Of a stretch of 64,000 bases of DNA, positions 2,457-21,761 are shown piece after piece. This DNA comes from an uncultured Gammaproteobacteria bacterium. Its GTDB lineage: Bacteria; Patescibacteriota; Patescibacteriia; S139-126. Every line of letters begins with the position of its first letter. Position 1 is the first letter of the stretch. The stretch lies in NCBI GenBank assembly GCA_964493305.1, contig CAZBLW010000002.1, positions 142,812-206,811 of the forward strand, in the 5' to 3' direction. The position numbers and the translations under genes are program-made. The notes beneath the pieces were generated by a model that was not told the DNA's origin, made no database searches, and saw nothing but the letters and a program-made list of their open reading frames with translations.

Positions 2457-2507
2457 ACTCGGGACGCTCTGGACTCCTGGTGAGGGTTGCGTCATCCATT
2501 GTGTTGT
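2457..2507 (+). repeat. Conserved sequence upstream of recombinase copy 1 (candidate att core or operator)
   Basis: 22-bp identical core actcgggacgctctggactcct (2457..2478) plus ~25 bp of ~75% similarity. The same sequence is found at 20347..20396 upstream of recombinase copy 2. Confidence 0.6.
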
Positions 2508-3848
2508 ATGGAAAATACAACATTTACGGCTGGTTTGGGGAGTATTAAGAGGCAGACTGTCCAACCCCAGCCGACCAAAATCAAATACTGCCTCTATGCA
2601 AGGAAATCGACCGAGAGCGAGGAGCGGCAAGTCCTCTCTATTGATAGTCAAGTCAAAGAGATGATGCAGCTCGCCGAACGCGAAGGTCTTGATATCGCCG
2701 AAATCAAACGCGAATCGCATTCGGCAAAAGAAACCGGACAAAGGCCGATCTTCAATGAAATCGTTGAAGAAATCAAACAGGGAAAATTCAACGGCATTTT
2801 AACTTGGGCGCCTGACCGTATTTCCAGAAACGCCGGGGATCTTGGGAAAATAGTTGACCTGATGGATGCAAAACTTTTGCAGGAAATTCGCACTTACGGT
2901 CAGCGGTTTAGCGATTCTCCAAATGAAAAATTTTTGCTGATGATTTTAGGATCGCAGGCAAAACTCGAAAACGACAACCGAGGCATTAACGTAAAACGCG
3001 GACTGAGGACAAGAGTTGAAATGGGATTATGGCCGGGCGTAGCACCCCTTGGATATCTCAATCAAAAACTAATGGATAAAAAGTGCCAGATTATTGTTGA
3101 TCCTGCACGGTCGCCGATGGTAAAGAAAATGTTTGAAAAAGTGGCATACGAACACTACTCAGGCAGAAAGATTTACAACTGGCTCAAATTTGAGCTGAAT
3201 TTTCATACACGCGGAAACAAACCGTTAACACTGTCCGGGGTTTACCGCATACTCGATAATCCGTTTTATTACGGACCATTTGAATATCCAAAAGACAGCG
3301 GTAACTGGTACCAAGGCAAACACCAGCCATTGATTACCCAAGAGCTGTTTGAAAAAGCTCAGGCTCAGTTAAAACGCGACCAAACAGTCAGAGAGAATAA
3401 AGAATTTGCTTTTACAAAACTGTTTACCTGCGGCTACTGCGGATCAGGAATCTCGGCAGAAGAAAAATGGAAAGCACTCAAAGATGGGACATCGGCGCAT
3501 TACATTTACTACGGCTGCAGTCGGGCAAGGGATCGAAACTGCAAAAACAAATACATCCGGGAGGAAGAATTGATTGATGAACTTTTGAAGATTATAGACA
3601 AAGTGAATATCAATGAGTTGGGCATGAGGCAGAAGCTTGAGGATGAGATTAGGCGGTTCAACAAATTACAGAAAATCGTAAACGGCAGAACCGGGCAGGC
3701 ATTAGTCGAGGAAAACGAAGTGAATATACGACAATATGCAAAATATCTTTTGAAAGAAGGCAGCGTGTCAGATAAACGCGAACTGCTGGCGAACTTAAGA
3801 AGCAGATTGAATTATAAAGACAAAAAAATAACCTTGATTGAGGAATAG
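2508..3848 (+). CDS. Large serine recombinase (resolvase/integrase family)
   Basis: N-terminal YARKSTESEERQ...SIDSQ resolvase catalytic domain with the Ser nucleophile. Recombinase domain and C-terminal zinc ribbon (CGYCGS...YYGCSRARDRNC). Start placed at the ATG (MENTTF) that aligns with the paralogue's ATG. The ORF track extends the frame to 2487. Confidence 0.85.
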   Translation: MENTTFTAGLGSIKRQTVQPQPTKIKYCLYARKSTESEERQVLSIDSQVKEMMQLAEREGLDIAEIKRESHSAKETGQRPIFNEIVEEIKQGKFNGILTWAPDRISRNAGDLGKIVDLMDAKLLQEIRTYGQRFSDSPNEKFLLMILGSQAKLENDNRGINVKRGLRTRVEMGLWPGVAPLGYLNQKLMDKKCQIIVDPARSPMVKKMFEKVAYEHYSGRKIYNWLKFELNFHTRGNKPLTLSGVYRILDNPFYYGPFEYPKDSGNWYQGKHQPLITQELFEKAQAQLKRDQTVRENKEFAFTKLFTCGYCGSGISAEEKWKALKDGTSAHYIYYGCSRARDRNCKNKYIREEELIDELLKIIDKVNINELGMRQKLEDEIRRFNKLQKIVNGRTGQALVEENEVNIRQYAKYLLKEGSVSDKRELLANLRSRLNYKDKKITLIEE

Positions 3849-3855
3849 ATCAAAA

Positions 3856-3890
3856 CAAAAAAGAGCGATACGAATCGTTCTTTTTTGTTC
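3856..3890 (+). terminator. Rho-independent terminator-like hairpin after recombinase 1
   Basis: Near-palindrome gagcgatacgaatcgttc followed by a T-run. Confidence 0.45.
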
Positions 3891-3896
3891 AACTTT

Positions 3897-3966
3897 TTAT
3901 AGGCACTCGGGTCGCTGACCGCTCTCGATTACTCGGGTCATGCCGATAAAAAATTGTCTTGGCGGT
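3897..3966. repeat. Imperfect direct repeat of the tRNA-Ser-proximal junction (attL/attR-like), with a degenerate tRNA 3'-end-like fragment at 3958..3990
   Basis: ttat-aggcactcgggtcgc and ccgataaaaaattgtcttggcgg match 23328..23347 and 23376..23397. The second copy abuts the 3' end of tRNA-Ser. Confidence 0.6.
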
Positions 3967-4329
3967 GATCTCGGGTTAAGTACCCGTGACCTCAATGTTT
4001 ATAAGAGTATTTTAGCACGAAAATAGCTAGACTGACTAGGCATGTGGGTCGGGGTCTGATTTAACCAAAATGCGACAAATGCGACAGTACTTAGGACTTC
4101 TGCTTTTCGGCCTTTCCAATGGCTCTTGCTTGGGCTGTTAAGCCCAATCTAGTTAGGCGTAATATGGATATTCCAAACTCGTTTGCCTCCTCTTTACTAA
4201 GATTTTGGCCATAATCTCGCTTAATAATTCTTTGAAGATCTTGGATCGTTTTCTTTTTTAACCGCATATTATTATTGGTTACTAATAAATTATAAAAATT
4301 TCTAACGCCATTTATAGGATCGCGTAAAA

Positions 4330-5034
4330 GTGATAAAATGTAAATATATGGCCGAGAATTTAATTAAAATAGACGACTTCTCCCAAGAAACACGCAATAA
4401 GATTGTGGAGATTTTAGATATCATTTTATACAAACTTGAGTTATTTCTCGTCACCAATAATGATGCTGAAAAAACTGACCACATTGAAACACCTTTCTTT
4501 TACAAAGAGTATAAACATCTTAGTTTGCACGATGTTAAAAAAGTAACTGAGATTTTAGAAAAGCATTTTGGAAGGCTTGGCTTTAAATTTCCCTTGAGAG
4601 GTATTGATAAAACAAAAGCGACCGCGTCTTGGAAAAACCTTTATGACGAAATTAAAAACTTTCGTGATTCCTTAAAATCCAAGAGGCCGATTCTTTCTGG
4701 TGACAATATAGTAGATATTTTAATTGTAAAACCAAACACCGACAGCAATAATTATTTGGTCGTTGTAAATCAAAAATTCAATACACCTATAAAAGCAGAT
4801 CGCGCTAAACCATCATGGGAATTGTTGTTTCAAATTGCAACCGACAAAGAAGTTACCTATTCCGATAATCATAAAACCAGTTTAGATTTTTTTAACTCAA
4901 ATAAGAGATGTAAGATCTATACTCAAACTGGTTTATCTCTAACTAAAATATTACAAAGAGAAAGTCGAAATATTGTGCCGGCTGTTAGGATTGGGATCAT
5001 AACCGAAAAAGCGTACAAACAAAAAATCGCTTAA
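4330..5034 (+). CDS. Hypothetical protein
   Basis: 234-aa ORF in AT-rich cargo. No recognisable motifs. Confidence 0.4.
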   Translation: MIKCKYMAENLIKIDDFSQETRNKIVEILDIILYKLELFLVTNNDAEKTDHIETPFFYKEYKHLSLHDVKKVTEILEKHFGRLGFKFPLRGIDKTKATASWKNLYDEIKNFRDSLKSKRPILSGDNIVDILIVKPNTDSNNYLVVVNQKFNTPIKADRAKPSWELLFQIATDKEVTYSDNHKTSLDFFNSNKRCKIYTQTGLSLTKILQRESRNIVPAVRIGIITEKAYKQKIA

Positions 5035-5060
5035 GCCAACTTAAAAAGTGGATAAATATG

Positions 5061-5092
5061 AGACCGCTTGAAATAAGCGGTTTTTTCGTATT
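5061..5092 (+). terminator. Rho-independent terminator
   Basis: Hairpin accgcttgaaataagcggt followed by TTTTTT. Confidence 0.6.
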
Positions 5093-5172
5093 TAAAAAAC
5101 ATCATTTCGGCCTAAATTAAGCTCTTTTTTCTTGAAATACTAAAGGTATTAATAAGTTAATCAAATAAAATT

Positions 5173-6501
5173 ATGAGCGACACAAAACTCACAATCGTGG
5201 AAGTTCCGATCAATGAACTTCGGGCATCGGAGTATAACCCAAGAAAACACTCCAAAGAGCAAGCAGATCAACTTAAAGAATCTATAAAACGATTCGGGAT
5301 GGTTGATCCAGTAATTTGTAATATTGCGCCAGACCGCAAAAACGTAATCATCGGCGGCCATTTTAGAGTTGAAGTAGCCAAAGAAATGGGCATGGTAAAT
5401 GTACCAGTGGTCTACGTTCAAATCACTGACCTAGATAAAGAAAAAGAGTTGAATCTTCGCCTAAACAAAAATGTGGGAGAATTTGATCTCGAGTTGCTAG
5501 CAGAATTTGACGAAGCATTTTTAAAAGACGTTGGATTTACCAGCGAAGATATTGATAACATATTCCCGACCGAGGAAAGTGTTGAGATATTTGATATACA
5601 AGGTGAGCTAACAAAAATAGGAATAGATAATATTACCGTTCAAAAAGGAGACATTTATGAGTTAGATGGATCAAGATTAATGTGTGGTGATTCAACCATA
5701 GAATCAGACATGAACACCCTAATGAAAGACGTTAAAGCCGACATGTGCTTTACAGATCCACCATACATTCTAGATTATCTCAAAGGTAAAACCAAACAAA
5801 AAGATGGAGTGACTACAGGTTTTGGTGCTAAAAAAAATCGTCGTTACCTTGAGACCGATGTTTTGCCGGACAACTTTACCGAATTATGGATGAAAAATAT
5901 CAGTAATATAGCCAAAGAAAATTTCGCAATTATCGTATACGAAAACTGGAAAAATATTCGCACCATTTGGAATGAAATGGAAAAGTATTGGCGAGTAAAA
6001 AATATGATTGTATGGCATTTGCCTAACAGGGTCCAAGGGTTCTCCTCTAAATATAGATTTTTCAATAAACATGATATTGCAATAACTGGAGCGACTGATA
6101 GATTTGTTCTAAATGATGAGGACGAGGACGAATTACTTGAAAACGAATACGAAACAGCCCTTTACGCAATAAGTGGTAAACCACACTGGGAATCATATGA
6201 GAAAGGCAAAAAGATTTGCCCGACCGACTTTATTGAGTTCAAGTCGGCTGATGAAAAATCGTCAGGACAAGGAGTAATTTTCGGCACCAAGCCAACCGAG
6301 ATATTAATTCCATACATTAAAGTACTTACAAAGAGAGATGATTTGATTGTAGAGCCATTCGGCGGAAGCGGATCAACATTAATCGCCTCAATTAAAATGC
6401 ATCGCCGCTGTTACCTCATGGAGAAGTGTCCTACCTACGCGCAAGTAATACTAAAACGCTGGGAAAAAGAGACTGGCAAAAAACCGATAAAGATAAACTA
6501 G
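5173..6501 (+). CDS. ParB-like nuclease domain / DNA methyltransferase fusion protein
   Basis: N-terminal ParB/Srx-like domain (EVPINELRASEYNPRKHS...VICNIAPDRKNVIIGGHFRVEVAKEMG). C-terminal methyltransferase with DPPY and FGGSGST motifs. This is the typical phage packaging-module ParB-methylase. Confidence 0.85.
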   Translation: MSDTKLTIVEVPINELRASEYNPRKHSKEQADQLKESIKRFGMVDPVICNIAPDRKNVIIGGHFRVEVAKEMGMVNVPVVYVQITDLDKEKELNLRLNKNVGEFDLELLAEFDEAFLKDVGFTSEDIDNIFPTEESVEIFDIQGELTKIGIDNITVQKGDIYELDGSRLMCGDSTIESDMNTLMKDVKADMCFTDPPYILDYLKGKTKQKDGVTTGFGAKKNRRYLETDVLPDNFTELWMKNISNIAKENFAIIVYENWKNIRTIWNEMEKYWRVKNMIVWHLPNRVQGFSSKYRFFNKHDIAITGATDRFVLNDEDEDELLENEYETALYAISGKPHWESYEKGKKICPTDFIEFKSADEKSSGQGVIFGTKPTEILIPYIKVLTKRDDLIVEPFGGSGSTLIASIKMHRRCYLMEKCPTYAQVILKRWEKETGKKPIKIN

Positions 6502-6502
6502 T

Positions 6503-7021
6503 ATGATCAGGGGCAAGATTAAACAAAAATTACTCAAAGAAATTGAAAAATTCGGCAATGTATATTTGTCTTGCCAAAAAATTGGAGTTGATAAAGCGAC
6601 TTACTATCGCTGGAAAGATAATGATGAAGAATTTAAAAAGCGAGCAGAAAGAGCCGAAGAAATTGGTCGGGAAAATATAGGTGAAGTGGCTGAGTATAGC
6701 CTTTTGCAAAACATAAAAGAAAAGAACCAACGAGCTATTGAGTTTGCTTTGGTTAATGTTTCAAAGAAATACAAACAAGACAGGACTACTAATGTCATAT
6801 TCATGCACAAAAAAGATATAATTCCAGACGTACCTCAAAAAACGATCGAGGACATGCTTGATGAGTATGCAGAAAGACGAAGGATTGAATCTATTGGCAC
6901 TGTGGGCTCAAAACACGAGATGGATAAGCCGCCAGTAATGCTTCAAGAGAATCAAACGCTTTCAGATAATCAGAACTCAAATTCTGCCATTCAGGACATG
7001 AAGCTGGATAGTAGTACTTAG
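6503..7021 (+). CDS. Terminase small subunit-like HTH protein (paralogue of 782..1150)
   Basis: KATYYRWKDNDEEFKK HTH motif in the same position relative to the ParB-methyltransferase gene. Its 3' end overlaps the convergent nuclease gene by 131 bp. Confidence 0.4.
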   Translation: MIRGKIKQKLLKEIEKFGNVYLSCQKIGVDKATYYRWKDNDEEFKKRAERAEEIGRENIGEVAEYSLLQNIKEKNQRAIEFALVNVSKKYKQDRTTNVIFMHKKDIIPDVPQKTIEDMLDEYAERRRIESIGTVGSKHEMDKPPVMLQENQTLSDNQNSNSAIQDMKLDSST

Positions 7022-7943
7022 AAGTTCGATATGACGAAGTATAATATTTGCCGGTTGTTTGAGAGCTTGCTGAAGTTTGAGACGAAGATGAATCAGTTGC
7101 ACTTGAAGTCGTGTCGCCATTGCAGGTATCAAGAGACCATAAGCCTCTCAGATTTTCTTGAGCTGATTTCTGAGCCGCCTTAAAGTTTGCTTGATATTTA
7201 TATGGCGTGTTGTATGTGTATTCGTGAGCATAACCTTGTTCAATCATGTATTTGTTGTAGAACAAACCATCTTCGCGATAAATATATGCAAGGCGACGAT
7301 TGTATTTATCAAATTCACCTTGAGTTGAATCTTTTTCAATTCTAACTTTCTTGCCGATCAATAATTCTTTAGCTTTATTTGAAGCTTCTTTACCAAAACA
7401 TTGAACTGGTTTTCTTGGATCGACTACCTCTGGAGTATCCATGCCGATTAAGCGTAATGTCTCAATCGTACCGCCTATATTCACCTTTATAGTGTCGCCA
7501 TCTACAACGCTTGAAACGGAATAATATTCATATTGTGAATTATTTTGAATTGCTGGAGTCGGAACTGTAGTTGTCTTTTCTGTTTGAGTCGTCTGAACAT
7601 TTTTAGTTTGTTGAGCTTCTGTCTTGGGTTGCTCCTCTGCTGTTGTAGTAGGATGATTTTCAATGACTACCTCAGGGTTATTGATTTGCGTTGATTCCTT
7701 GTTTTCACTTTCAACAGAAGCACTCTCATTGCTGATTGGCTTTTCTGTTTTCGGAGTAGTTATACCGATACCAAAGAAAGAAACAATTATTATTGCAGAA
7801 CAAACAATCGCAATGGTTTTCCTTTTAGGAATAATTTTAATTGCCCGTTTAAAAACAGACGGCTTAATTAATCCGACAATTAAAGAGATGATTGATAGCA
7901 ATAATGTTAATAAAAATATGTAGGTCATATGGTTGGAAAACAA
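6891..7943 (-). CDS. Membrane-anchored thermonuclease (staphylococcal nuclease/SNase-like domain) with an S/T-rich C-terminal tail
   Basis: N-terminal TM segment and T/Q-rich linker. SNase motifs VVDGDTIKV...LRLIGMDTPE...YNRRLAYIY. Confidence 0.7.
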   Translation of the reverse strand: MFSNHMTYIFLLTLLLSIISLIVGLIKPSVFKRAIKIIPKRKTIAIVCSAIIIVSFFGIGITTPKTEKPISNESASVESENKESTQINNPEVVIENHPTTTAEEQPKTEAQQTKNVQTTQTEKTTTVPTPAIQNNSQYEYYSVSSVVDGDTIKVNIGGTIETLRLIGMDTPEVVDPRKPVQCFGKEASNKAKELLIGKKVRIEKDSTQGEFDKYNRRLAYIYREDGLFYNKYMIEQGYAHEYTYNTPYKYQANFKAAQKSAQENLRGLWSLDTCNGDTTSSATDSSSSQTSASSQTTGKYYTSSYRTSKYYYPASCPEWQNLSSDYLKAFDSLEALLAAYPSRVLSPQCQ

Positions 7944-7944
7944 A

Positions 7945-7972
7945 AAACCAGCTGTCTTATAGCTGGCGATAG
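7945..7972 (-). terminator. Rho-independent terminator (minus-strand orientation)
   Basis: ccagctgtcttatagctgg hairpin. Read on the minus strand it is followed by TTTTTTG. Confidence 0.5.
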
Positions 7973-7978
7973 AGATAT

Positions 7979-8165
7979 GTGTGGATACACAGAACCCCGC
8001 GCCAGCTAGACCTTACGGTCCCATACCAGTTTCCCGATATGACCCATGGAAGAGTCGCTGAACGCGGGGTTCAGTATCTTCGTTGGGTTTTCCCGACCAT
8101 ATCCTTTGGGGAAACCAAAGGGGTTAGGTCGCTGGCCTTTCGACCAGTAATATTAAATTGTTAAG
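7979..8165 (-). ncRNA. Candidate structured non-coding RNA (unclassified)
   Basis: About 190 nt of locally GC-rich sequence in an AT-rich intergenic region, with nested inverted repeats: gaaccccgcg/cgcggggttc (10 bp), cctttgg/ccaaagg around a ggaaa loop, cgacc/ggtcg, and gccagc..gacc/ggtc..gctggc. A minus-strand intrinsic terminator lies immediately downstream. Strand and identity are uncertain. Confidence 0.25.
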
Positions 8166-8331
8166 TACATTTTACCAGAAAATCCAAAGGATTTAAAGGC
8201 CTCTGTACTTTAGCTTAATAACAGGGGTTTGCGAAGTCGAGTTACCAACAGCTAAATTCTGTGAATATTGGAATTTAATATGTCCATATTTTTGATTTTG
8301 TGATAAAATAATTATAGAGAAATTCAATCTT

Positions 8332-8958
8332 ATGAAGATAAAAATGTCTTATCAAATTACACCAACAAATGACTCAATGATACGAGTTGTTTTGAGAAAA
8401 AAATTAGAGAAAAAACACGCTAAGGATAAACACGTTAGAATTATAGATGAATTAGGATTGCATCATGGTGATGCAAGGGTTGATATTGCCGTGGTGAATG
8501 GTGTTATGCATGGATATGAAATAAAAAGTGATCAAGACACTCTATTTAGGTTACCTGAACAAATTCAAGTATATAATTCTGTGTTTGATAAAATGACACT
8601 CGTAGTTGGTAAAAGTCATTTATACGAAGCAATAAAGATTGTTCCTGATTGGTGGGGCGTCGTAGTCGCGAAAACAGATACTAATGGAAATGTTATTTTT
8701 AACACTATCAGGAAAGAGGAAACCAATAAGGCGCAAAATCAGTTGTCTGTAGCAAGACTTCTTTGGAGAGAGGAAGCCCTTAGAATTCTCGAGGATATTG
8801 ACGAAGCAAAGGGATTACGTTCCAAGCCTAGAGATTTAATTTATACTAAATTATCTACTGTTTTAGATCAGAAAACTTTAAACAAAAAAGTTAGAGAGAC
8901 AATTTTCTTTAGGACAGATTGGCGATCTGAGTCGCCGCTACTGTCATATGGTGGTTAA
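8332..8958 (+). CDS. Hypothetical protein with PD-(D/E)xK nuclease-like motif (possibly sce7726-like)
   Basis: GDARVDIAVV...GYEIKSD matches the D...ExK arrangement of the restriction-endonuclease fold. 208 aa. The family assignment is from memory and unverified. Confidence 0.4.
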   Translation: MKIKMSYQITPTNDSMIRVVLRKKLEKKHAKDKHVRIIDELGLHHGDARVDIAVVNGVMHGYEIKSDQDTLFRLPEQIQVYNSVFDKMTLVVGKSHLYEAIKIVPDWWGVVVAKTDTNGNVIFNTIRKEETNKAQNQLSVARLLWREEALRILEDIDEAKGLRSKPRDLIYTKLSTVLDQKTLNKKVRETIFFRTDWRSESPLLSYGG

Positions 8959-10027
8959 TGCCAGCCACTAACCATGTTTCCGTGCTTCCAGTGCCTTTAA
9001 TATCTACTCCTTTATTTTTTTCTTCCATATATTTAGGAAAATGTTTAGCTTTTTCGGCAATATGTTTATCGCCTGAGCTAAAATCTTCACCATAATATCG
9101 ATTGTCTTTTATTAATTCAGCGGCACTAGCTAAATATAATTCGAATTTTTGTCTTTTTCCTTTCATTATTAACCAATTTTCATCCAGTGTATATTTTATA
9201 CTTGAGGTGGGATGAAAGAATTGAGAGATTTCTTCATATATAGGATATTGAATAGTATAATCGGAAAAGGACGGCTTTCTTTGAACACTTGCATTAGAAT
9301 ATAGTTCCTTCCATTTTTTCCATTCAATACGAGGAATCAGGTTCTCTTCATCAATTTTGCATTGCGACAAGTCTTTTGGAAAAGCGCTACCAGAGAAAAT
9401 AAAAGTTCTCCATTTTAATAAATCAACAATATTTTGACTGAGTTCAAAATATTTTTTATATTTTTCCCCATCTCCCTCAAGCTCTTTTATATCCACCAAT
9501 AAGTCGATGCTGTTTTTATCTATCTTGTTTTTTGAAATAAAATCGGCAATGTCGCTATTTAATTTAGTTAAATCAGAAAAATCTGAACATACTAATCGTA
9601 AGCAAAGACCGCTTTTTATTTCATTGGCCAATGAGCAGACTGTGTCTTTTATCTCAGCATCATCATTTAAATGAACAACTGGAATAAAGATAGCCTGTTT
9701 TTTATTACCTGCCATTAAAATTGATTTTATGCTATCAATTTTTAGTTCGGTGGTGAACAATAAACTAAAATCAACAAAAATAGGACTCTTACCCCAAACT
9801 TCAATTATTCTATCCGGGATCAAGGGTAGTAGTTTTTTGAATTTTGTTACAACGCTCTCCAAAGTATCCTGGGGTTTTTGTTTCGGCATAACAAATTGGA
9901 TCAGTGGGGTAATATTTTTTTTATTTTCCTCAGCCAAACTCTCTAAAGCTCCTTGTTCGGCTCGTTTCCATTTCAATATTGGTATGTAGTGTTTCGAATT
10001 AAACATATTATTTAGTCCATTTTTCAT
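8909..10027 (-). CDS. Hypothetical protein, third gene of the higB / XRE-ImmA operon (possibly Beta-protein/sce7725-like)
   Basis: 372-aa ORF whose start overlaps the stop of the upstream peptidase gene by 20 bp. No confident motif. Its size and its adjacency to the PD-(D/E)xK protein resemble the sce7725/sce7726 pair, but that match is from memory. Confidence 0.35.
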   Translation of the reverse strand: MKNGLNNMFNSKHYIPILKWKRAEQGALESLAEENKKNITPLIQFVMPKQKPQDTLESVVTKFKKLLPLIPDRIIEVWGKSPIFVDFSLLFTTELKIDSIKSILMAGNKKQAIFIPVVHLNDDAEIKDTVCSLANEIKSGLCLRLVCSDFSDLTKLNSDIADFISKNKIDKNSIDLLVDIKELEGDGEKYKKYFELSQNIVDLLKWRTFIFSGSAFPKDLSQCKIDEENLIPRIEWKKWKELYSNASVQRKPSFSDYTIQYPIYEEISQFFHPTSSIKYTLDENWLIMKGKRQKFELYLASAAELIKDNRYYGEDFSSGDKHIAEKAKHFPKYMEEKNKGVDIKGTGSTETWLVAGINHHMTVAATQIANLS

Positions 10028-11512: not shown

Positions 11513-11595
11513 GTTTATTAATAATTACATTATGATATGCTCCCATATTGGGAATGATATACCATGTAATTAAATAAGTCAATAGGTTGCCCCAA

Positions 11596-11625
11596 AAATA
11601 CAAAATAACGCCGATACTGGCGTTA
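11596..11625 (-). terminator. Bidirectional rho-independent terminator ending the R-M operon
   Basis: aataacgcc-gatact-ggcgttatt hairpin flanked by A/T runs. Confidence 0.55.
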
Positions 11626-11654
11626 TTTTGTATAAAATTAACTGAATTTTTAGA

Positions 11655-12224: not shown

Positions 12225-12226
12225 AA

Positions 12227-15139: not shown

Positions 15140-17322
15140 ATATTACTAATTCCTTCTAATTTCTTATAATGAAGCGGATCCAAGATTTTTACCAACTGAA
15201 ATGCTTCTTGAATTCGTTGATGGGCATTCGTTAATATTGAGTCATCAATTGATTCGGGATCGATGAATCCATGGGACCCATGATTGATAAAACGATACAT
15301 TTCCAGAGGATTAGCGCTAAAGGGGTTAGTCTCTTTTTCAGTAGTTTTAGTGGCTGACGAATATGCGCTTTCAAGAGTAGACCGCAAATCTCCAGTCGTA
15401 GAAAATTTGAATTCCAGAAAAGTTTCTAACCAGCGACGTAATAAATTAACAACCAAATGAGCATCTTCTAGATCACATGTATCCTTGTGTTTTGCCAAGA
15501 CGCTAAAAACATAATAATAATCTGACCTATGATCTCTGAGTAAGGGGTGTATGGCTTCAATAATGCATCCATTGCTTGTAGCCGCGAAACTAAACAATCT
15601 AACATCGCCACTTCCTATTTTTGATCTGAAATGCTCTCTTAGGTGGCCTAAAAAGTCTAAGTTGTGTGTTAATACAAAATATTGTCGCCCAGCATGATTT
15701 TTTATTTCATTTACAATAATTGAAAAAATTTGAAATATAGCTTGCTTATCTAAACTTGATACAGGATCATCAATCACAACAACACCGTCATCGGGAAGTT
15801 TATTTTGAGCATCGTTAATCGAATAAATGAAATAAGCCAGTGCAATAAAATTCTTCTCTCCTTCACTTAAACTAGAAAACGCACAGTTTGTTTCATCTCT
15901 TTTTAAGGCATATCCCTTACCATCATCAGCATCGGTAATTTCTATTTTTCTATAGGGGAATACGACTTTAAAGAGACGATTTAATGCTTGAGCTGGTTCA
16001 AGTGTATTTTTTACTTTTTGCTTTAATTCTTTAACTTGTGTATCTAATTTAGAAATCTCAAGAGTTATGGCTGACCTTTGATCTGTGGCTTTTGCAAAAA
16101 GCTCCTTTGCTCTGGCATATTCTTCGTATTGCTGTGCAACGAAATGTGTCTCAATAGCATAAGCAACAGAGGTAGCATCAGTTGAAGTTGGGTTTGTCAT
16201 TGGGGTTAATTTTGTTATATCGAGAGTATATGCAGTTTTTATCACGGAGATGGAAGTTCTCTTCTCTTTCAGGATCACTGCTAAGGCATCAAATATAGCT
16301 CTAACAAAATCAACATTTTGCTGTTGAGATTTGGATAATGAATCTAATTTAGCAAAACTGGTGGTATATCCTTCAATAATCTTTAAATATTCATCAATTG
16401 AGTTTATTGTCTTAACGACTTCGTCTGAAAAATGCTTGATTAGCTCTTCTGTGTTTGAAATATCAGAATTACAAAATAAACATTTCGCGAGTGGTTTTTC
16501 TTGATTAAAATGCAAACTGACACCCTGTTTAATCCAGCCAGTTTGGGTTTCATTTAGATCATCTATTCTTTTTGAGTGGACTTGTACTGGTTGTGATCCT
16601 AACCCATTATTTATATTTTCAATATTATCGATAAGCCATTTAGCGGCATTAGCTATTTCATTGTCATTTTTCGCCAACCTTTCAGTATTCATTAACTGAC
16701 CTTTTAATGAATCAACGTCTGCGCGTATTAATTCGGCGTGACTTTTAATTTTTCCATCAGCTATCTTTTTCTCTATATCTGCGATCCGCTTCTCAAAATC
16801 AGTTTTTGAATAACTGGCATAAGTACCAGCACCCACGAGTTGTTTCTTTATACTGTTTATTCCACCGACTTCTTTAATTACAACTGCGGTAGCGCTAGCA
16901 ATGTCATCGTGTTTTGTTGGTAGAATTATTTTATTTAATTCATCCTTTTTATCTTTTAATTTTTGTTCTTCAGCGTCGTAGCTCACCGCTTCTTTGCCAG
17001 CAAAAAAGATATAAGGAATTGTTGAACTTCCACGCAACGTTTCTTCAATATAGTTGCCATTAAAAATTCTTATATTGTTTTTTGTTAAATTTAAATCACA
17101 GGTATCGGTAATTTGCGAGGATTCAGTTTTAATCTTAAAGGTACAGCTATTTTCAATAATTCCATTTTCAAGACTACGCAACACATTTGAAAAAGTAGTT
17201 TTACCTGATCCGTTCCATCCAAAAAGTAAATTAACCCCATCAGCAAAATCAACCAAGGTTGGACCCCAGGAATAATTATGAAATCTTGCATGATTAAGTT
17301 TTTCGACTTTTTGAATCTTCAT
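15136..17322 (-). CDS. RloC/PrrC-like ABC-type ATPase (candidate anticodon nuclease) embedded in the type I R-M operon
   Basis: Walker A GWNGSGKTT, Walker B/D-loop VVVIDDPVSSLD and H-loop THN. A ~450-aa coiled-coil-like insert contains a CxxC motif (CLFCNSD), which is zinc-hook-like as in RloC. Its position between hsdS and hsdR matches prr locus architecture. C-terminal R-x3-E and His residues are consistent with an ACNase domain. Confidence 0.5.
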   Translation of the reverse strand: MKIQKVEKLNHARFHNYSWGPTLVDFADGVNLLFGWNGSGKTTFSNVLRSLENGIIENSCTFKIKTESSQITDTCDLNLTKNNIRIFNGNYIEETLRGSSTIPYIFFAGKEAVSYDAEEQKLKDKKDELNKIILPTKHDDIASATAVVIKEVGGINSIKKQLVGAGTYASYSKTDFEKRIADIEKKIADGKIKSHAELIRADVDSLKGQLMNTERLAKNDNEIANAAKWLIDNIENINNGLGSQPVQVHSKRIDDLNETQTGWIKQGVSLHFNQEKPLAKCLFCNSDISNTEELIKHFSDEVVKTINSIDEYLKIIEGYTTSFAKLDSLSKSQQQNVDFVRAIFDALAVILKEKRTSISVIKTAYTLDITKLTPMTNPTSTDATSVAYAIETHFVAQQYEEYARAKELFAKATDQRSAITLEISKLDTQVKELKQKVKNTLEPAQALNRLFKVVFPYRKIEITDADDGKGYALKRDETNCAFSSLSEGEKNFIALAYFIYSINDAQNKLPDDGVVVIDDPVSSLDKQAIFQIFSIIVNEIKNHAGRQYFVLTHNLDFLGHLREHFRSKIGSGDVRLFSFAATSNGCIIEAIHPLLRDHRSDYYYVFSVLAKHKDTCDLEDAHLVVNLLRRWLETFLEFKFSTTGDLRSTLESAYSSATKTTEKETNPFSANPLEMYRFINHGSHGFIDPESIDDSILTNAHQRIQEAFQLVKILDPLHYKKLEGISNI

Positions 17323-17330
17323 ATGCTTTT

Positions 17331-18539
17331 CTATTTGTTTGGTTTTACCCTAACCTTACCGCTCAACAAATCCTGCATCAGACCTTTTTTTAGCTTTATT
17401 AATGTCTCTTTGTACTTGGTATTAACTGAAATTTTTTCATCTGTTGAAGAAAGAATATCAGCAATCTTTTTTTGTTCGTTTTTCGGTGGCACTTTGATCA
17501 AAAGTGGATTTAATTTTTCTAGATTTATATTTTTCTGAGCAGATTGGGTGGAAATACTATTCAAGTATTCCTTTTGTGTTCGGAGATAATATTCTAGATA
17601 TATGGGATCAATTATTTCTGAGGGAGTAATACCTATCAAGCTATCTGGAAAGCATGAATCAAATTGTAATATTCCAGTGTCACCAATATTTGCCGCGATA
17701 GTAATAACTATTGTACCTTTCTTAAATAATCTGCTAACAGATAACCCTTTTTCATTTAGAGTTTGAGTATATGAAGAAATTTTGCCATTTGAATTAACAA
17801 CATCTCCTGTTTGAATAAAAGGAATATTGCCCCCATAAAATTCAGGAGCATTACGTGGTCGATGAGAAAACTTTCCACGCTCTACAGTCGCAATTTCAGA
17901 TAATTTTAAAATGTTCCATTCCTCGGGAATGGTGCCAATTGCTGTCTTTTTAAAATTTTTATGCCCAATACCCCTTATAAGGAGATCCTGCATCAATCCA
18001 TTTTTTAACTCTGTTGTTTGTTCTATGATGGAGTCTATTTTTTTAACCTCATCATCAACAGATGTTAATATCTCTACAATTCTCTTTTGCTCAGTCAAAG
18101 ACGGTTCCAAAACCTCGTACATTTTTCGTATCACACTTGGGTGTGCTTTTGTTTGATAGTCGAACTTAAAAAAAGAGTGCTCCCAGTCCAAAAGAAAAAA
18201 TAAGTACTTGTATATCAATCTGTCTTTTTTAAGAATACGTAATATTCCACTAACATTGGTCACTGAAAACTTATGTTTTGGTCGGTAAAAAAAATTACCA
18301 CCTCCATCAACTGACCACGTTATTAACTCTTCATCAAACATGAAAGGGTTGTATCTTCCAAACAAGGCTTCCTTATGAACTGAAGAAGAATATATGGGAT
18401 TATCACCTGGATTATTCCGAATATCATTTTTTGAAATTACATTTCCACGCGTTAATTCAATAACACCCGATGCAATATAATCATCGAGAAGCGAATGCCT
18501 CCAGTCATTGGGTATTGTTTTTTGATCTATTGCTCGCAT
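17331..18539 (-). CDS. hsdS: Type I R-M specificity subunit (HsdS)
   Basis: Two TRD halves each followed by the conserved LMQDLL repeat regions (KNGLMQDLLIRG, KKGLMQDLLSGKV). Confidence 0.85.
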   Translation of the reverse strand: MRAIDQKTIPNDWRHSLLDDYIASGVIELTRGNVISKNDIRNNPGDNPIYSSSVHKEALFGRYNPFMFDEELITWSVDGGGNFFYRPKHKFSVTNVSGILRILKKDRLIYKYLFFLLDWEHSFFKFDYQTKAHPSVIRKMYEVLEPSLTEQKRIVEILTSVDDEVKKIDSIIEQTTELKNGLMQDLLIRGIGHKNFKKTAIGTIPEEWNILKLSEIATVERGKFSHRPRNAPEFYGGNIPFIQTGDVVNSNGKISSYTQTLNEKGLSVSRLFKKGTIVITIAANIGDTGILQFDSCFPDSLIGITPSEIIDPIYLEYYLRTQKEYLNSISTQSAQKNINLEKLNPLLIKVPPKNEQKKIADILSSTDEKISVNTKYKETLIKLKKGLMQDLLSGKVRVKPNK

Positions 18540-18540
18540 G

Positions 18541-20286
18541 TTAATAATTTAATTCAGAAAGAAAACCGTCTAATTTCTTATTTATTGATTCGCGCTCTTT
18601 TTCAAGAGATTTCAGTTCCGTCCATACAGTTTTTACGTTTATAAATTCTTTATCTTCTGATGAATCAATATACTGACTTATGTTTAAGTTGTAATCATTT
18701 TCAGTGATTTCCTTTATATCAACTACCCGAGTATATTTTTCAATATCGGAATATCCATCGTATGCTTTTACGATTTTATTTATATCTTGTGGTCGTAAAG
18801 AATTCTGATTTTTTCCCTCAAGAAAATCTTTTTCTGCATCAATAATCAAAACCTTATTCTTTTTGTTTTCTGGCTTGTTTTTATTGAGGATAAGAATAGC
18901 CGCTGGGATGCCCGTGCCATAGAAAAGTTTAGCTGGTAAAGCAATAACAGCTTCAATTAAATCATTCTTAAGAATTTGCTCACGAATACGACCTTCGGCA
19001 CCACTACGGAATAAAACACCATGCGGAAGAACAATGCCAGCTCGGCCGTTTACATTCATCGATTTAATAATATGCAAAACAAAAGCATAGTCGGCATTTT
19101 TTTCTGGAGGCATATCATAACCTTCAAGTCGACCATATTTATTTGTCTTAAATATTTCTGATTCCCAGTCCTTGATCGAGTAGGGTGGATTTGCAACGCA
19201 GATATCAAATGTTTGCAAATTGCCATTTTGTGTTAGAAATTGAGGATTCGCGATTGTATCGCCACGACGAATATCAGCACTATCAAGACCGTGCAAAAAC
19301 ATATTAATTTTTGCAATAGCAAAAGTACTGATATTTAATTCTTGTCCGTAGAGATAAAGTGTTTTAGCAATTTTCTCGCCAGATTTTTGCTTTAGATAGT
19401 CGTATGCTTCAAGCAGGAAACCGCCTGATCCAGCCGTTGGGTCATAAATGTGATCTTTTTGATGAGGCTTTAAAATTCCGATGATAACTTTTTCAACTTC
19501 ACGAGGTGTGTAGAACTCTCCACCTTTTTTCCCTGCATCTGCGGCGAATTGTTTAATGAGATATTCATAGGCATCACCTAAAAGATCGGAACTGATATAG
19601 GTGTTACCAAAATTATATTGAGAAAAATGATTGATAAGTCTTTGAAGTGTTTCGTTTGGAAAACGATCTCTGTTTGAGAAATCAAGATCATCAAAAATTT
19701 TGTCCAGTTTCGGACTATTGGCATTAGCAAGTTTTTCAAAAATATCATTTAACTTTTGACCGATACTTTCCGCTTGTTCGGTAATAACATTCCATCTACA
19801 ATCTTTTGGAACTTGAAAACGGTGGTTATAGTCAGCGCCGGCAATTGTCTTATCGTTATACTCTTTCATTATCGACTCGTACTCTTCGTCCCACACATCA
19901 CTCATTCTTTTATAAAACAAAAGCCCGAAGATGTATTTTTTATAATCCGAGCTGTCTATTTTTCCTCGAAGGATGTCGGCACTCTTCCAAAGAAAAGCTT
20001 CAAGCTGAGGTAAGGTAAGTTTGCTACCCATTTTATCCACGATCGCTTGAATATCCTGTGGGCGATATTTGCGATCTTTGCGTGGACCAACTCTAAGGGG
20101 AACAAGTGTGCCGTCCTTTTCCCAGTTTCTTAAAGTATCTTGGTGGATGCTAAAAATCTCTGCTACCTGACCGATAGAGAGTAACTCTGGCATTCCTTTG
20201 AGTTTTTCTTGGATGTCTTTTCTCATATTGTTTAATATAAGTCTATCAGACTCCAAATATAAAGTCAAATGTTCATAGGTTTTCAT
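18541..20286 (-). CDS. hsdM: Type I R-M methyltransferase subunit (HsdM) with N-terminal excisionase/MerR-type HTH extension
   Basis: HsdM N-terminal domain (LEAFLWKSADILRG) and N6-adenine methyltransferase motif NPPY (VANPPYS). An extra ~85-aa N-terminus has an HTH_17-like sequence (LSIGQVAEIFSIHQDTLRNWEKDGTLVPLRVG). Confidence 0.9.
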   Translation of the reverse strand: MKTYEHLTLYLESDRLILNNMRKDIQEKLKGMPELLSIGQVAEIFSIHQDTLRNWEKDGTLVPLRVGPRKDRKYRPQDIQAIVDKMGSKLTLPQLEAFLWKSADILRGKIDSSDYKKYIFGLLFYKRMSDVWDEEYESIMKEYNDKTIAGADYNHRFQVPKDCRWNVITEQAESIGQKLNDIFEKLANANSPKLDKIFDDLDFSNRDRFPNETLQRLINHFSQYNFGNTYISSDLLGDAYEYLIKQFAADAGKKGGEFYTPREVEKVIIGILKPHQKDHIYDPTAGSGGFLLEAYDYLKQKSGEKIAKTLYLYGQELNISTFAIAKINMFLHGLDSADIRRGDTIANPQFLTQNGNLQTFDICVANPPYSIKDWESEIFKTNKYGRLEGYDMPPEKNADYAFVLHIIKSMNVNGRAGIVLPHGVLFRSGAEGRIREQILKNDLIEAVIALPAKLFYGTGIPAAILILNKNKPENKKNKVLIIDAEKDFLEGKNQNSLRPQDINKIVKAYDGYSDIEKYTRVVDIKEITENDYNLNISQYIDSSEDKEFINVKTVWTELKSLEKERESINKKLDGFLSELNY

Positions 20287-20346
20287 AGGTCTGTATAGTA
20301 GCTTAACCCTGAAAATACGGGTAATTTACTTGTCTACAGGTTATCT

Positions 20347-20396
20347 ACTCGGGACGCTCTGGACTCCTTTGGGGATTGGCGTCATTCATTAGATAT
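20347..20396 (+). repeat. Conserved sequence upstream of recombinase copy 2 (second copy of 2457..2507)
   Basis: Identical 22-mer actcgggacgctctggactcct at 20347..20368. Confidence 0.6.
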
Positions 20397-21722
20397 ATGA
20401 AAATAACAGCCCCAAAGGGCTATGAGGTGGCCCAAATACAGCCTCAAACGGTCAAAGTTAGGTATTGCCTGTATGCCCGTAAATCAACAGAATCGGAGGA
20501 AAGACAGGTACTTTCCATTGATTCGCAGATAAAAGAGATGCTTCAGCTCGCTGAAAGAGAGAATTTGGAGGTGGTTTGTATGAAGCGTGAGAGTCATTCA
20601 GCCAAGGAAACTGGACAAAGACCGGTCTTTAACGAGATCATTGAAGAAATACGAGTCAAGAAGTATAACGCTATCCTCACCTGGGCACCCGATCGTATTT
20701 CAAGAAATGCCGGGGACTTAGGAAAGATTGTGGATTTGATGGATGCAGGACTTCTACAAGAAATCAGAACCTACGGACAAAAGTTTTCAAACAATCCAAA
20801 TGAAAAATTCTTGCTGATGATTCTTGGATCACAGGCAAAACTTGAAAATGATAACAGAGGCGTAAATGTAAAACGCGGACTACGAACAAGAGTGGAAATG
20901 GGATTGTGGCCAGGAGTGGCACCGCTCGGATATTTGAATCAAAACTTAATGGATAAGAAATGCCAAGTGATTATTGATCCGCAACGTGCGTCGACAATTA
21001 AGAAAATGTTTGAGAAAGTGGCGTATGAACATTACTCAGGTAGAAAACTATATAATTGGTTACGCCATGAACTTAATTTCTATACCCGAGGAAACAAACC
21101 ATTAACACTGAGTGGAATATATAGAATCTTGGATAATCACTTCTATTACGGAACGTTTGAATCGCCGAAAGGTAGTGGTAATTGGTATCAAGGAAAACAC
21201 GCACCGATCATAACACAAGAATTATTTGAAAAAGCTCAAGCGCAACTAAAACGAGATAATATACAGCGCGAAAATAAAGAATTTGCCTTTACTAAACTAT
21301 TCACTTGCGGATACTGTGGAAGTGGAATATCTGCCGAAGAAAAATGGAAACAACTCAAAGATGGAACGCACGCAAAATACATCTACTACTCTTGTAGTAG
21401 AGCGAGAGATAGAAACTGTAAAAATCACTATATACGAGAAGAAGATTTAATAACCGAATTACTTAAAATACTGGATAAAGTAAACATTAATGAGTTGGGT
21501 ATGAGACAAAAATTGGAAGATGAGATAGCGAGATTCAATATTTTTCAAAGATCGGTACTTGGTGCAACGGAAAAGATTAAAAATAACCAAGATACTGATA
21601 TACGAAACTTCGCCAAGTATATTTTGAAAGAAGGTACAGTTGGCGAGAAAAGAGAGCTACTGGCGAATCTGAGATCGAGAATAATTTACAAAGACAAACA
21701 ACTTACGCTGATTGAGGAATAA
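20397..21722 (+). CDS. Large serine recombinase (paralogue of 2508..3848)
   Basis: The same domain set as copy 1: resolvase domain, recombinase domain and zinc ribbon. About 80% aa identity. ATG start chosen by alignment with copy 1. The ORF-track start at 20376 is a TTG. Confidence 0.85.
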   Translation: MKITAPKGYEVAQIQPQTVKVRYCLYARKSTESEERQVLSIDSQIKEMLQLAERENLEVVCMKRESHSAKETGQRPVFNEIIEEIRVKKYNAILTWAPDRISRNAGDLGKIVDLMDAGLLQEIRTYGQKFSNNPNEKFLLMILGSQAKLENDNRGVNVKRGLRTRVEMGLWPGVAPLGYLNQNLMDKKCQVIIDPQRASTIKKMFEKVAYEHYSGRKLYNWLRHELNFYTRGNKPLTLSGIYRILDNHFYYGTFESPKGSGNWYQGKHAPIITQELFEKAQAQLKRDNIQRENKEFAFTKLFTCGYCGSGISAEEKWKQLKDGTHAKYIYYSCSRARDRNCKNHYIREEDLITELLKILDKVNINELGMRQKLEDEIARFNIFQRSVLGATEKIKNNQDTDIRNFAKYILKEGTVGEKRELLANLRSRIIYKDKQLTLIEE

Positions 21723-21761
21723 TAAAAATACACGAGTTGATCGTGTATTTTATTTAACTAT

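Follow-up and report, generated by a model that had tools for sequence, protein, structure and literature searches.

The 22-mer ACTCGGGACGCTCTGGACTCCT that precedes two large serine recombinase genes is probably part of a conserved signal for expression of the integrase gene and not a recombination site. Comparison with empty sites places the att crossover elsewhere, in a 15-bp repeat, AAATTGTCTTGGCGG, which follows each recombinase gene and is located at a tRNA-Ser 3' end. The window, i.e., the whole 64,000-nt stretch of DNA that was analysed, contains two related phage-like elements (A and B) integrated in tandem at this 3' end.

Two related elements in tandem at tRNA-Ser

The two genes, here called recA (2508–3848, + strand, 446 aa) and recB (20397–21722, + strand, 441 aa), encode bona fide large serine recombinases. 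Both proteins contain Resolvase (PF00239), Recombinase (PF07508) and Zn_ribbon_recom (PF13408) domains in that order (Pfam) and match the phrog_95 integrase. The catalytic serine motif (Y30, A31, R32, K33 and S34) and the four cysteines of the zinc ribbon (C308, C311, C337 and C345) are invariant in 22 members of the recombinase family, and the nearest solved structure is that of SPbeta YokA/SprA (9dxh; E 2.3e-12, residues 30–378). The first-pass annotation had estimated about 80% protein identity, roughly 30% divergence of the coding DNA and a different GC content; we measured 81% amino acid identity, 70.1% DNA identity and GC contents of 43.2% (recA) and 38.4% (recB). The longest exact run in the alignment of the two coding sequences is 15 nt. 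A terminator-like hairpin is located 3' of recA (3854–3889, + strand).

The integration target is tRNA-Ser(GCT) (23393–23486, − strand), whose 3' end (CCGCCA) overlaps the 15-bp repeat. The crossover interval defined by the empty-site comparison is this repeat, at 3951–3965 and 23384–23398. An arm, CCGATAAWAAATTGTCTTGGCGG, located 3' of each recombinase gene, adjoins the tRNA-Ser 3' end. In the P-arm region of element A (3903–3965, + strand), ACTCGGGTC boxes (3905 and 3931) precede the core arm CCGATAAAAAATTGTCTTGGCGG (3943–3965), and that of element B (23335–23398, + strand) contains GGCACTCGGGTCGC (23335–23348) and the core arm CCGATAATAAATTGTCTTGGCGG (23376–23398). Across genomes, the P arm adjoins tRNA-Ser in about 40 of 44 loci. 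In two contigs with an identical recA (L248 and L249), the P arm of element A is joined straight to tRNA-Ser, without element B, which identifies 3966–23398 as a second element inserted in tandem. These element-B-free junctions lie at AAATTGTCTTGGCGG and not at the 22-mer, where the first-pass annotation had suggested searching for empty sites, and the att arms are 3' of each recombinase gene; att sites away from the conserved stretch were an outcome that it had itself named as speaking against its proposal. No empty site was found through the terL relatives; the nearest of them also have a recombinase gene, which is adjacent in L168/L109 and L108 and about 9.6 kb away in L170/L112.

Element B (3966–23398, + strand) is a phage- or satellite-like integrative element of 19,433 bp located between element A and tRNA-Ser. 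It carries, in order, a ParB-methylase gene, a small terminase-like gene, an SNase gene, the LOOT RNA, a defence block, recB and two or three ORFs of unknown function. Its left end (P'; 3966–4110, + strand), with a T-arm-like hairpin CTCGGGTTAAGTACCCG (3970–3986), AGGCATGTGGGTCGGG (4038–4053) and AATGCGACA direct repeats, shares homology with the left ends found in both the L065 units and the L021 neighbour. Both elements have the features of tRNA-targeting integrative elements, namely an integrase gene near one end, abutment on a tRNA 3' end and 15-bp direct repeats, and each recombinase gene is near the tRNA-proximal end of its own element. Thus, attB is likely the 3' end of tRNA-Ser, and the attP arms are likely CCGATAAWAAATTGTCTTGGCGG and the T-arm-like P'. 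The predicted junction of the excised circle of element B is GACTCCGATAATAAATTGTCTTGGCGGTGATCTCGGG, and the predicted element-B-free site is CATGCCGATAAAAAATTGTCTTGGCGGAGAGGGAGG.

The part of element B between 8254 and 20340, a block of 12 kb, is missing from L006. It contains genes for a P4_cII-like ORF, Beta_protein, IrrE/HigB, YgjP, type I R-M hsdR, AAA_13, hsdS and hsdM. Compared with L006, this defence block separates box D (AGTTACCAACAGCT) from TTATCTACTCGGG exactly at their boundary, and a further box-D-like copy, ACTTGTCTACAGG, is present at its right end. A solo box D module (8196–8255, with TTGCGAAGTCGAGTTACCAACAGCT) is located between divergent promoters; in L006, the solo box D directly adjoins the 22-mer motif. 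The two 22-mers had been described as bracketing about 17.9 kb of defence cargo, which recombination between them could delete or circularise. A discrete defence-carrying unit between recombinase-linked repeats does exist, but the unit is 3966–23398; the defence island of the window should accordingly be annotated as cargo that belongs to a tandem-inserted 19.4-kb element and not as a segment bracketed by the 22-mers.

A bipartite core ahead of recombinase genes

In the whole 64-kb window, exact copies of the 22-mer occur only at 2457–2478 and 20347–20368, both on the + strand, and no third copy was found even with up to three mismatches (shuffled sequences are expected to contain none). The copies end 29 nt (recA) and 28 nt (recB) before the ATG, in agreement with the direct orientation and the distance of about 30 bp reported in the first-pass annotation. 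The partial similarity noted beyond the 22-mer was also recovered: the upstream regions are alike from GTTATC (2450 and 20340) through to the ATG, with 82% identity over 51 nt. The conserved region upstream of recA (2450–2507, + strand) begins with a box-D-like GTTATCAAC (2450–2458, + strand), followed by box 1 (CTGGAC, 2469–2474), a free spacer of 14 nt (2475–2488) and box 2 (GCGTCAT, 2489–2495), 12 nt from the ATG at 2508. The conserved region upstream of recB (20326–20396, + strand) has the same arrangement, with box-D-like copies at 20326–20348, box 1 (CTGGAC) at 20359–20364, a 14-nt spacer at 20365–20378 and box 2 (GCGTCAT) at 20379–20385, 11 nt from the ATG at 20397.

Taken alone, an exact 22-mer shared by two sequences that are 70% identical is not very improbable; its significance comes from conservation across genomes rather than from identity within the window alone. 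The exact 22-mer was found in 26 species-level genomes, mostly Patescibacteria, and a homologous recombinase gene was downstream every time. When loci were picked by protein similarity only, the 22-mer itself was often degenerate, and the constant part was a bipartite core: CT(G/A)GAC, 14 nt of free sequence, GCGTCAT and then mostly 10–12 nt to the start codon. CTGGAC and GCGTCAT were present in 99 of 149 unique recombinase upstream regions, separated by 14 nt in 93 regions and by 13 nt in the other 6, with near-invariant boxes and a spacer of free sequence. The segments beside this rigid core vary in length (0 or 7–9 nt, and 10–12 nt). In distant subfamilies (44–60% amino acid identity), box 1 and a spacer of 13–14 nt are kept, and box 2 becomes GCGGTAC, GGGCATC or CTGGCAT. 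Upstream of the core are one or two direct-repeat boxes (AGTTAYCWAC), and the subfamily of the window has an additional copy of the first box, GGGACGCTCT, which is the first half of the 22-mer. This first half resembles the att-arm ACTCGGGTCGC boxes and, judging by that resemblance, might be bound by the recombinase or by an accessory protein. The terL-motif-recA and hsdM-motif-recB arrangements are syntenic blocks conserved across genomes. Such a core, set against coding DNA of approximately 70% identity, bears out the earlier view that the selective conservation implies function.

The core is not confined to recombinase genes. It was matched 126 times in 1.55 Mb, with 110 matches preceding recombinase genes and most of the remaining 16 followed by another gene in the same orientation. 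Specifically, a protein family of 107–111 aa follows the core seven times, with a GTG start 10 nt past box 2, and other such genes are a phrog_33624 ORF, a 177-aa ORF and a Macro-like ORF. A few matches have only a short or degenerate ORF or a recombinase remnant downstream, or a recombinase gene that was missed at a contig end. In L002, the motif is located ahead of the LOOT RNA, and GCGTCAT sits where other LOOT copies have a TATAAT-type −10 box.

Several other explanations of the conserved stretch were rejected. A minus-strand micro-ORF (M-T-x-x-x-x-G-V-Q-S-V-P-S) and an in-frame TTG extension of the recombinase gene are both contradicted by a 1-nt difference in spacer length and by stop codons in several loci. 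When reverse-complemented, the 22-mer agrees with a 5' portion of tRNA-Ser (AGAG..CCGAGT) at 10 of 14 positions, outside the att interval, and this match was treated as chance. Box D did not match the Ser anticodon loop.

Readings of the upstream motif

Most probably, the motif serves the integrase gene as a promoter/operator with a rigid spacer. CTGGAC would be a −35-like box and GCGTCAT a −10-like box, read by a non-housekeeping sigma factor or a transcription factor, and the upstream repeats might be operator or activator sites. Together, the boxes and repeats would ensure that the integrase gene, along with a few co-regulated genes of the element, is controlled in an element-specific way. 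Action at the level of transcription is suggested because the motif replaces the −10 position ahead of the LOOT RNA in L002. Promoters of alternative (ECF) sigma factors typically combine stringent boxes and a rigid spacer (bioRxiv 10.1101/534826), and the motif likewise has two stringently conserved boxes and a rigid spacer. However, the boxes are unlike sigma-70 hexamers; none of the latter, at a distance of 16–18 nt, were found within 2450–2507 or 20340–20396, and the nearest sigma-70-like sites are upstream of the motif at 2347–2375 and 20272–20299. Additionally, with GGAC-N15-CGTC, the motif is 1–3 nt shorter than the ECF-type GGAAC-N16/17-CGTC or GTT, and no gene for a sigma factor was noticed when the annotated ORFs of the two elements were inspected. 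A sigma-54 promoter (GG-N10-GC) was rejected because of its wrong spacing. If GCGTCAT is the −10 box, the mRNA leaders are merely 3–5 nt long, which sits uneasily with the GTG start of the 107-aa gene. Immediately ahead of the motif, terminator-like hairpins were not significantly enriched (8 of 114 versus 13 of 342 controls), and an upstream terminator was thus rejected as indirect proof of a promoter. The regulatory site, which the first-pass annotation had offered as its second option, is nevertheless favoured, with the core tied to gene starts that include those of non-recombinase genes.

A reading that overlaps with the promoter and differs solely in what reads the DNA is an operator for the recombinase itself, a directionality factor or an element repressor. 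Such a protein would bind through ACTCGGGACGC and repress or activate the integrase gene, coupling its expression to the state of the att site. Element A carries a LexA-like repressor. ACTCGGG(A/T)CGC occurs at 2457, 3905, 20347 and 23337, with a 4-fold enrichment, on one strand and beside the recombinase genes; GGGTCGGG is also present in the P' region, and box 2 varies with the recombinase subfamily, all of which fit this operator. It seems rather unlikely to us since the ACTCGGGACGCT half is absent from many members that keep the core (e.g., L065, L082, L089 and L110), and unrelated genes and one RNA gene are also preceded by the motif. Moreover, when scanned with a core-P-arm position weight matrix built from 57 P arms, forward or reverse-complemented, the upstream regions scored no better than random windows. 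On this evidence, a dyad pairing the P arm with the upstream motif (CCGA..ATAA..TGT versus ACAGGTTATCTACTCGG), seen by eye, was rejected as a general feature. If the sigma-70-like sites at 2347–2375 and 20272–20299 are used, the motif is transcribed, and it could then be a structured 5'-UTR RNA or translational operator, for example through a GACGC...GCGUC hairpin in which CUCC pairs with the G-rich spacer. Compensatory-looking hairpins are present in a few sequences (L056, L096, L111 and L097). We consider this quite unlikely: RNAalifold returned a single 5-bp helix with 0 compensatory pairs, the partner of the invariant strand is itself variable, and the motif also precedes a non-coding RNA. 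Interior hairpins, although attractive singly in L096, L056, L011 and L111, were rejected, their stability relative to shuffled sequences being close to zero over 69 unique sequences (mean z −0.30, median −0.02). Rfam gave no match to the motif, whether the cut-off was the gathering threshold or E<=1, bar one chance match of 12 bits. Pairing of the LOOT RNA with the recombinase leader was also rejected, as the duplex energies (z 0.07 and −1.7) were not significant.

It appears very unlikely that the recombinase uses the motif as half of an att site, or as an additional attI-like one, to delete or circularise the DNA between copies or to capture cargo beside its gene. The empty-site comparison puts the crossover elsewhere, and the motif is internal to the L065 elements, which are tandem units of 2.93 kb with a unit junction approximately 280 nt upstream of the motif; this depth from the left element end is 16.4 kb in the window. 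The dyad symmetry that the first-pass annotation had thought worth looking for is absent, with only a 5-bp GACGC/GCGTC pair between asymmetric inner and outer flanks, and the motif is held at a fixed distance and orientation to start codons, also of non-recombinase genes. Its proposal that the 22-mer could be the core of an att site is consequently not supported. An observation on the side of recombination is the 12-kb block, whose exact placement between box D and the 22-mer, as seen by comparison with L006, would be explained if box D and ACTCGGGACGC formed a second recombinase-recognised site at which cargo is captured or exchanged beside the integrase gene. Solo box D copies flank some cargo and occur elsewhere too, and the left flank of hsdM-linked loci looks, by eye, faintly like the P arm (weakly by matrix). 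If such a second site existed, a large serine recombinase would be operating a platform similar to an integron, a proposal that we consider highly doubtful. The sequences after the solo box D copies are unrelated to one another, and on the other strand these copies closely precede the promoter region of leftward genes (e.g., LOOT), so that homologous exchange between repeated promoter modules explains the 12-kb indel. Finally, the identity could be a remnant of recent horizontal spread of one recombinase cassette and have no function. The family is indeed very mobile, with 67–92% amino acid identity between different Patescibacteria classes, but this explanation is extremely improbable given flanking coding DNA with so short an exact run, constant boxes around a randomised 14-nt spacer, and a box 1 and spacing that hold down to 44% amino acid identity.

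Comparison with known systems and significance

As in the phage large serine integrase systems (phiC31, Bxb1, A118/LI and SPbeta SprA), the att site adjoins the gene and the identity between partners is short (15 bp here). However, the site as mapped follows the gene and is distinct from the 22-mer, and the P' half mimics a tRNA T-arm rather than mirroring the P half. To our knowledge, a tRNA-Ser 3' end is an unusual target for characterised serine integrases. Two related elements head to tail at one tRNA, with the integrase gene tRNA-proximal, resemble tandem genomic islands that accrete at one attB in a tRNA gene and P4-like satellites, as do the defence cargo near the integrase gene and the ORF with a P4_cII domain; unlike in these, the integrase is a serine and not a tyrosine recombinase, and the hosts are Patescibacteria. 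Variable cargo immediately 5' of the recombinase gene and beside a conserved site recalls the integron (intI-attI-cassettes), whereas no repeated attC-like sites are evident at the cargo ends, the recombinase belongs to a different family, and the motif behaves as a gene-start signal.

Among regulatory regions, the lambda integrase promoter P_I is activated by CII through direct repeats that flank the −35 box. The motif likewise is a control region directly ahead of the integrase gene, with direct repeats (AGTTAYCWAC, period of about 12) before a promoter-like core, but it has no sequence similarity to P_I and no sigma-70 hexamers. GGAC and CGTC resemble the boxes of ECF promoters (GGAAC, rigid spacer, CGTC/GTT), from which the motif differs in its shorter spacing, the lack of AAC and the lack of a sigma gene found in the elements. 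CTGGAC-N14-GCGTCAT is a candidate for a new class of promoter/operator specific to these mobile elements.

We found no paper on serine recombinases in Patescibacteria. The large serine integrase family described here is very widespread in these bacteria and so far undescribed, and its likely attachment sites are now defined; such enzyme-site pairs are raw material for genome-engineering tools in bacteria that are very hard to manipulate. The integrase, the 107-aa protein of unknown function and, once, an orphan LOOT RNA form a putative regulon, and the motif they share gives an entry point for studying how these elements commit to moving.

Two serine recombinase genes in tandem elements

The 22-mer ACTCGGGACGCTCTGGACTCCT has two exact copies in the window (2457-2478 and 20347-20368, both on the plus strand), and no third copy was found there with up to three mismatches; none is expected by chance. 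The copies end 29 nt before the ATG of recA (2508-3848) and 28 nt before that of recB (20397-21722). By every feature tested, both gene products belong to the large serine recombinase family, including the domain order Resolvase, Recombinase and zinc ribbon, and the nearest solved structure to the family is the SPbeta integrase YokA/SprA. RecA and RecB are 81% identical as proteins and 70.1% as DNA, with GC contents of 43.2% and 38.4%, respectively, and a longest exact run of 15 nt in the coding alignment. Upstream, the similarity spans GTTATC to the ATG. Since copies, gene positions, identities and upstream similarity were all verified, the first-pass annotation was correct in describing a shared site about 30 bp before two genes of roughly 80% protein identity, 30% nucleotide divergence and different GC content, with partial similarity beyond the 22-mer.

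The genes belong to two related phage- or satellite-like elements, A and B, located head to tail at a tRNA-Ser(GCT) gene (23393-23486, minus strand). These are tandem tRNA-targeting integrative elements, a known kind. Element A reaches past the left window edge; its gene order, read from a contig of the same strain, is a LexA/S24-type repressor, two restriction-modification (R-M) systems, a ParB-methylase, small and large terminase, the conserved region 5' of the recombinase gene (the motif), recA and the P arm, the att-side sequence 3' of the recombinase gene. Element B (3966-23398) starts with the P' end, its opposite, left end, followed by small ORFs, a ParB-methylase, a small terminase-like gene, an SNase and a LOOT RNA (RF03000). 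A 12-kb block (8254-20340) comes next; it comprises a P4_cII-like ORF, Beta_protein, IrrE/HigB, YgjP and a type I R-M operon into which an AAA_13 ATPase gene is inserted. To its right are the motif and recB, then two or three uncharacterised ORFs and the P arm.

The ORF at 8332-8958 (plus strand) matches phrog_984 and has a Phage_P4_cII domain in the precomputed Pfam annotation; alongside packaging genes limited to terminases, it suggests that element B is satellite-like rather than a full prophage. Within the R-M operon (hsdM, hsdS and hsdR; 12227-20286, minus strand), the AAA_13 gene, of the RloC/PrrC-like ATPase family, lies between hsdS and hsdR; in the comparison locus L006, it stands alone between recB and the tRNA. 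The LOOT RNA (8008-8130, minus strand) is a frequent passenger of these elements, with 28 copies in the fetched loci, usually divergent from the recombinase gene and a few hundred nucleotides 5' of it.

Attachment sites at tRNA genes

The same series of a terminator, GGCACTCGGGTCGC and CCGATAAWAAATTGTCTTGGCGG was found 3' of recA (3849-3965) and beside tRNA-Ser (23290-23398), and the similarity ends at TGGCGG (in reverse complement CCGCCA, the 3' end of the tRNA). The fetched loci contain 63 instances of this P arm, which adjoins tRNA-Ser of various anticodons in about 40 of the 44 loci checked and tRNA-Asp in two. In L248 and L249, from assemblies of other samples with a RecA protein sequence identical to that of the window, the element A P arm is joined straight to tRNA-Ser (...CCGATAAAAAATTGTCTTGGCGG followed directly by AGAGGGAGGGATTCGAACC), whereas in the window it continues into TGATCTCGGGTTAAG. 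Therefore, 3966-23398 (19,433 bp) is a discrete insertion. It is flanked by the 15-bp repeat AAATTGTCTTGGCGG at 3951-3965 and 23384-23398. The crossover must fall within this repeat, since the two sides differ (A/T) at 3950/23383.

The motif lies inside the elements. Two complete 2.93-kb tandem units in L065 each consist of a P' end, about 280 nt, box D (AGTTAYCWAC) with a short motif, the recombinase gene, one ORF and the P arm, so the unit junction lies about 280 nt from the motif. These units and a unit in L021 have left ends homologous to that of element B (3966-4110), all sharing a T-arm-like hairpin and AGGCATGTGGGTCGGG and AATGNGACA repeats. Additionally, the motif lies within the syntenic blocks terL-motif-recA (L014, L108 and L168/L109) and hsdM-motif-recB (six genomes, 83-88% nucleotide identity). 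No dyad symmetry beyond 5 bp was present in the alignment of 66 distinct copies of the motif region, and a P arm weight matrix found no match to the upstream region in either orientation. By the criteria tested, the motif is not a serine-integrase att site. The proposal that the 22-mer is the att core is thus contradicted by the 3'-side junction, the element-B-free sites, the internal position and the syntenic blocks. Likewise, the excisable unit is not the 17.9 kb between the two 22-mers, as had been suggested, but 3966-23398, bounded by P-arm repeats.

Several further observations concern these sites. The P' end hairpin of element B, CTCGGGTTAAGTACCCG (3970-3986; L021 254-270, minus strand), can be aligned in register with the target tRNA-Ser T-arm (GGG.T..G.ACCC) and is therefore a T-arm mimic in attP. 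To our knowledge, both a serine integrase targeting a tRNA 3' end and a P' half mimicking a T-arm are unusual. The L065 array (5580-13344) is compact. Its two 2.93-kb units contain little besides a serine recombinase gene and a single ORF, and are followed by two units that lack a recombinase; P-arm repeats separate all units, and the array lies ahead of a tRNA 3' end missed by ARAGORN. With the exception of L247, all public contigs with identical RecA or RecB (L248-L251) end inside the P-arm/tRNA-Ser repeat; either assemblies are broken by the repeat or element B is polymorphic in these populations. ARAGORN also called tRNA-Ser with the unusual anticodon ACT beside elements in L017 (2291-2378), L029 (8232-8319), L047 (9818-9907), L053 (10839-10928) and L056 (8513-8602); divergent from it are tRNA-Ser(GCT) in L017 and L053 and tRNA-Ser(CGA) in L029.

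Anatomy and spread of the upstream motif

Based on the alignment of 66 distinct copies, the region begins with box D, often as two direct copies about 12 nt apart. The halves of the 22-mer, GGGACGCTCT and GGACTCCT, follow and resemble two tandem copies of one box of about 10 nt. A variable stretch of about 8 nt comes next, then TTGCGTCATYMATK, and a further 5-7 nt lead to the ATG. The first half of the 22-mer is absent from many family members (for example, L065, L082, L089 and L110), and the universal part is a bipartite core, CT(G/A)GAC (box 1)-N14-GCGTCAT (box 2), present in 99 of 149 unique recombinase upstream regions. Its spacer is 14 nt in 93 of these and 13 nt in 6, and is essentially free in sequence, with adjoining segments that vary in length; GCGTCAT mostly ends 10-12 nt before the ATG. 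Box 1 and the spacing of 13-14 nt persist in subfamilies at 44-60% amino acid identity, with box 2 replaced by GCGGTAC, CTGGTAC, GGGCATC or CTGGCAT. Solo box D modules (window 8196-8230; L008, L020, L124 and L130) carry a hairpin 5' of box D with the conserved loop GTACYTTAGCTTA and a stem that differs by locus (CCTCTGT/ACAGGGG, CTCG/CGAG and TATCT/AGATA).

In a scan of one genome per species, the exact 22-mer was found in 26 genomes, nearly all Patescibacteria, including Saccharibacteria, Paceibacteria, Magasanikbacteria and others. Every copy is found directly 5' of a gene for a homologous recombinase, at 19-29 nt from the first ORF-opening ATG, which bears out the earlier argument from selective conservation to function; neutral conservation is unlikely. 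The recombinases are 67-92% identical to RecA, with an invariant catalytic serine motif and four invariant zinc-ribbon cysteines. The family has at least 580 metagenome matches and 61 viral contigs, and our literature search found nothing on it. Loci picked only for protein similarity often have a degenerate 22-mer; a profile of the upstream region found 113 sites in 106 sources, almost all immediately 5' of the recombinase ORF. Six IMG/VR viral contigs each carry two diverged recombinase copies (L115/L117, L123/L131, L133/L137, L111/L145, L148/L151 and L165/L166), so the arrangement in the window is recurrent. In L015 (6921-6992, minus strand), a complete motif precedes what is left of a recombinase gene after a large internal deletion, the ATG being fused to about residue 274.

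A candidate promoter or operator

The core pattern had 126 matches in 1.55 Mb, 110 of them preceding a recombinase gene. Most of the other 16 are followed by another gene in the same orientation, and a few by only a short or degenerate ORF, a recombinase remnant or a recombinase gene missed at a contig end. Specifically, a 107-111-aa family (VDDIEAII.ASKHFKY) stands behind the core seven times, always with 10 nt from GCGTCAT to its GTG start; also found behind it are a phrog_33624 protein, a 177-aa ORF and a Macro-like ORF. The seven loci (L022 1113, L025 395 and 3764, L050 5246, L061 847, L062 3703 and L105 1723) are on recombinase-bearing contigs; the family has a weak PHROG match, is absent from the window and could be an integrase partner, such as a directionality factor. 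The L002 motif is followed by a LOOT RNA (3244-3379). In other LOOT copies, the conserved leader ACAAYTKAATA is preceded, at a distance of 8-10 nt, by an extended -10 (TGGTATAAT or TGGTAAAAT), whose place is taken by GCGTCAT in L002. This is the best evidence here that the motif may act in transcription, with box 2 as a -10-like element.

We infer, with moderate confidence, that the motif is an element-specific promoter/operator, which would control the integrase and a few partner genes, because the core precedes gene starts, replaces the LOOT -10 in L002, has ECF-like boxes and is accompanied by upstream direct repeats. Two stringent boxes around a rigid spacer of free sequence are the look of alternative or ECF sigma promoters (bioRxiv 10.1101/534826). 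GGAC...CGTC of the motif recalls the ECF boxes, with a spacing 1-3 nt shorter than in ECF promoters; the motif fits an alternative-sigma promoter in part. Regulated int promoters such as lambda P_I have activator or repressor sites, which the upstream direct repeats recall. Promoter scans found no sigma-70-like boxes in the motif, which by the criteria tested is neither a sigma-70 promoter nor a structured RNA, and no sigma factor gene was seen among the annotated ORFs of elements A and B. A further weak point of the promoter reading is that GCGTCAT as a -10 would leave the mRNAs near-leaderless. Of the two roles first proposed for the 22-mer, att core and regulatory site, the second is favoured: the sequence has a function, which is probably regulatory.

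An operator bound by the recombinase or an accessory factor is plausible for the subfamily-specific half of the 22-mer, as ACTCGGG(A/T)CGC is likewise present in the two P-arm regions (at 3905 and 23337) and another ACTCGGGTC lies at 3931. It is very improbable that the motif serves as a second recombination site, one that captures cargo. The one observation in its favour is the position of the 12-kb block, which is an indel between box D and the 22-mer, since the LOOT side runs straight into the motif and recB in L006. However, the sequences after solo box D copies are unrelated to each other, and on the other strand solo box D lies just 5' of the region where leftward genes, LOOT among them, have their promoters, so exchange between copies of a promoter module is the simpler account of the indel. 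An RNA element is unlikely: RNAalifold (66 sequences) keeps only a GACGC/GCGUC helix without compensatory change, the interior of 69 unique sequences folds no better than shuffles (mean z -0.30, median -0.02), the strand opposite the invariant left half is itself variable, and no Rfam family was matched at the gathering threshold or E<=1.

We regard the finding as a candidate integrase control region in a new, widespread family of elements. It is of value for providing a defined pair of integrase and att site for Patescibacteria, as well as a candidate control motif that is new and sharply delimited.
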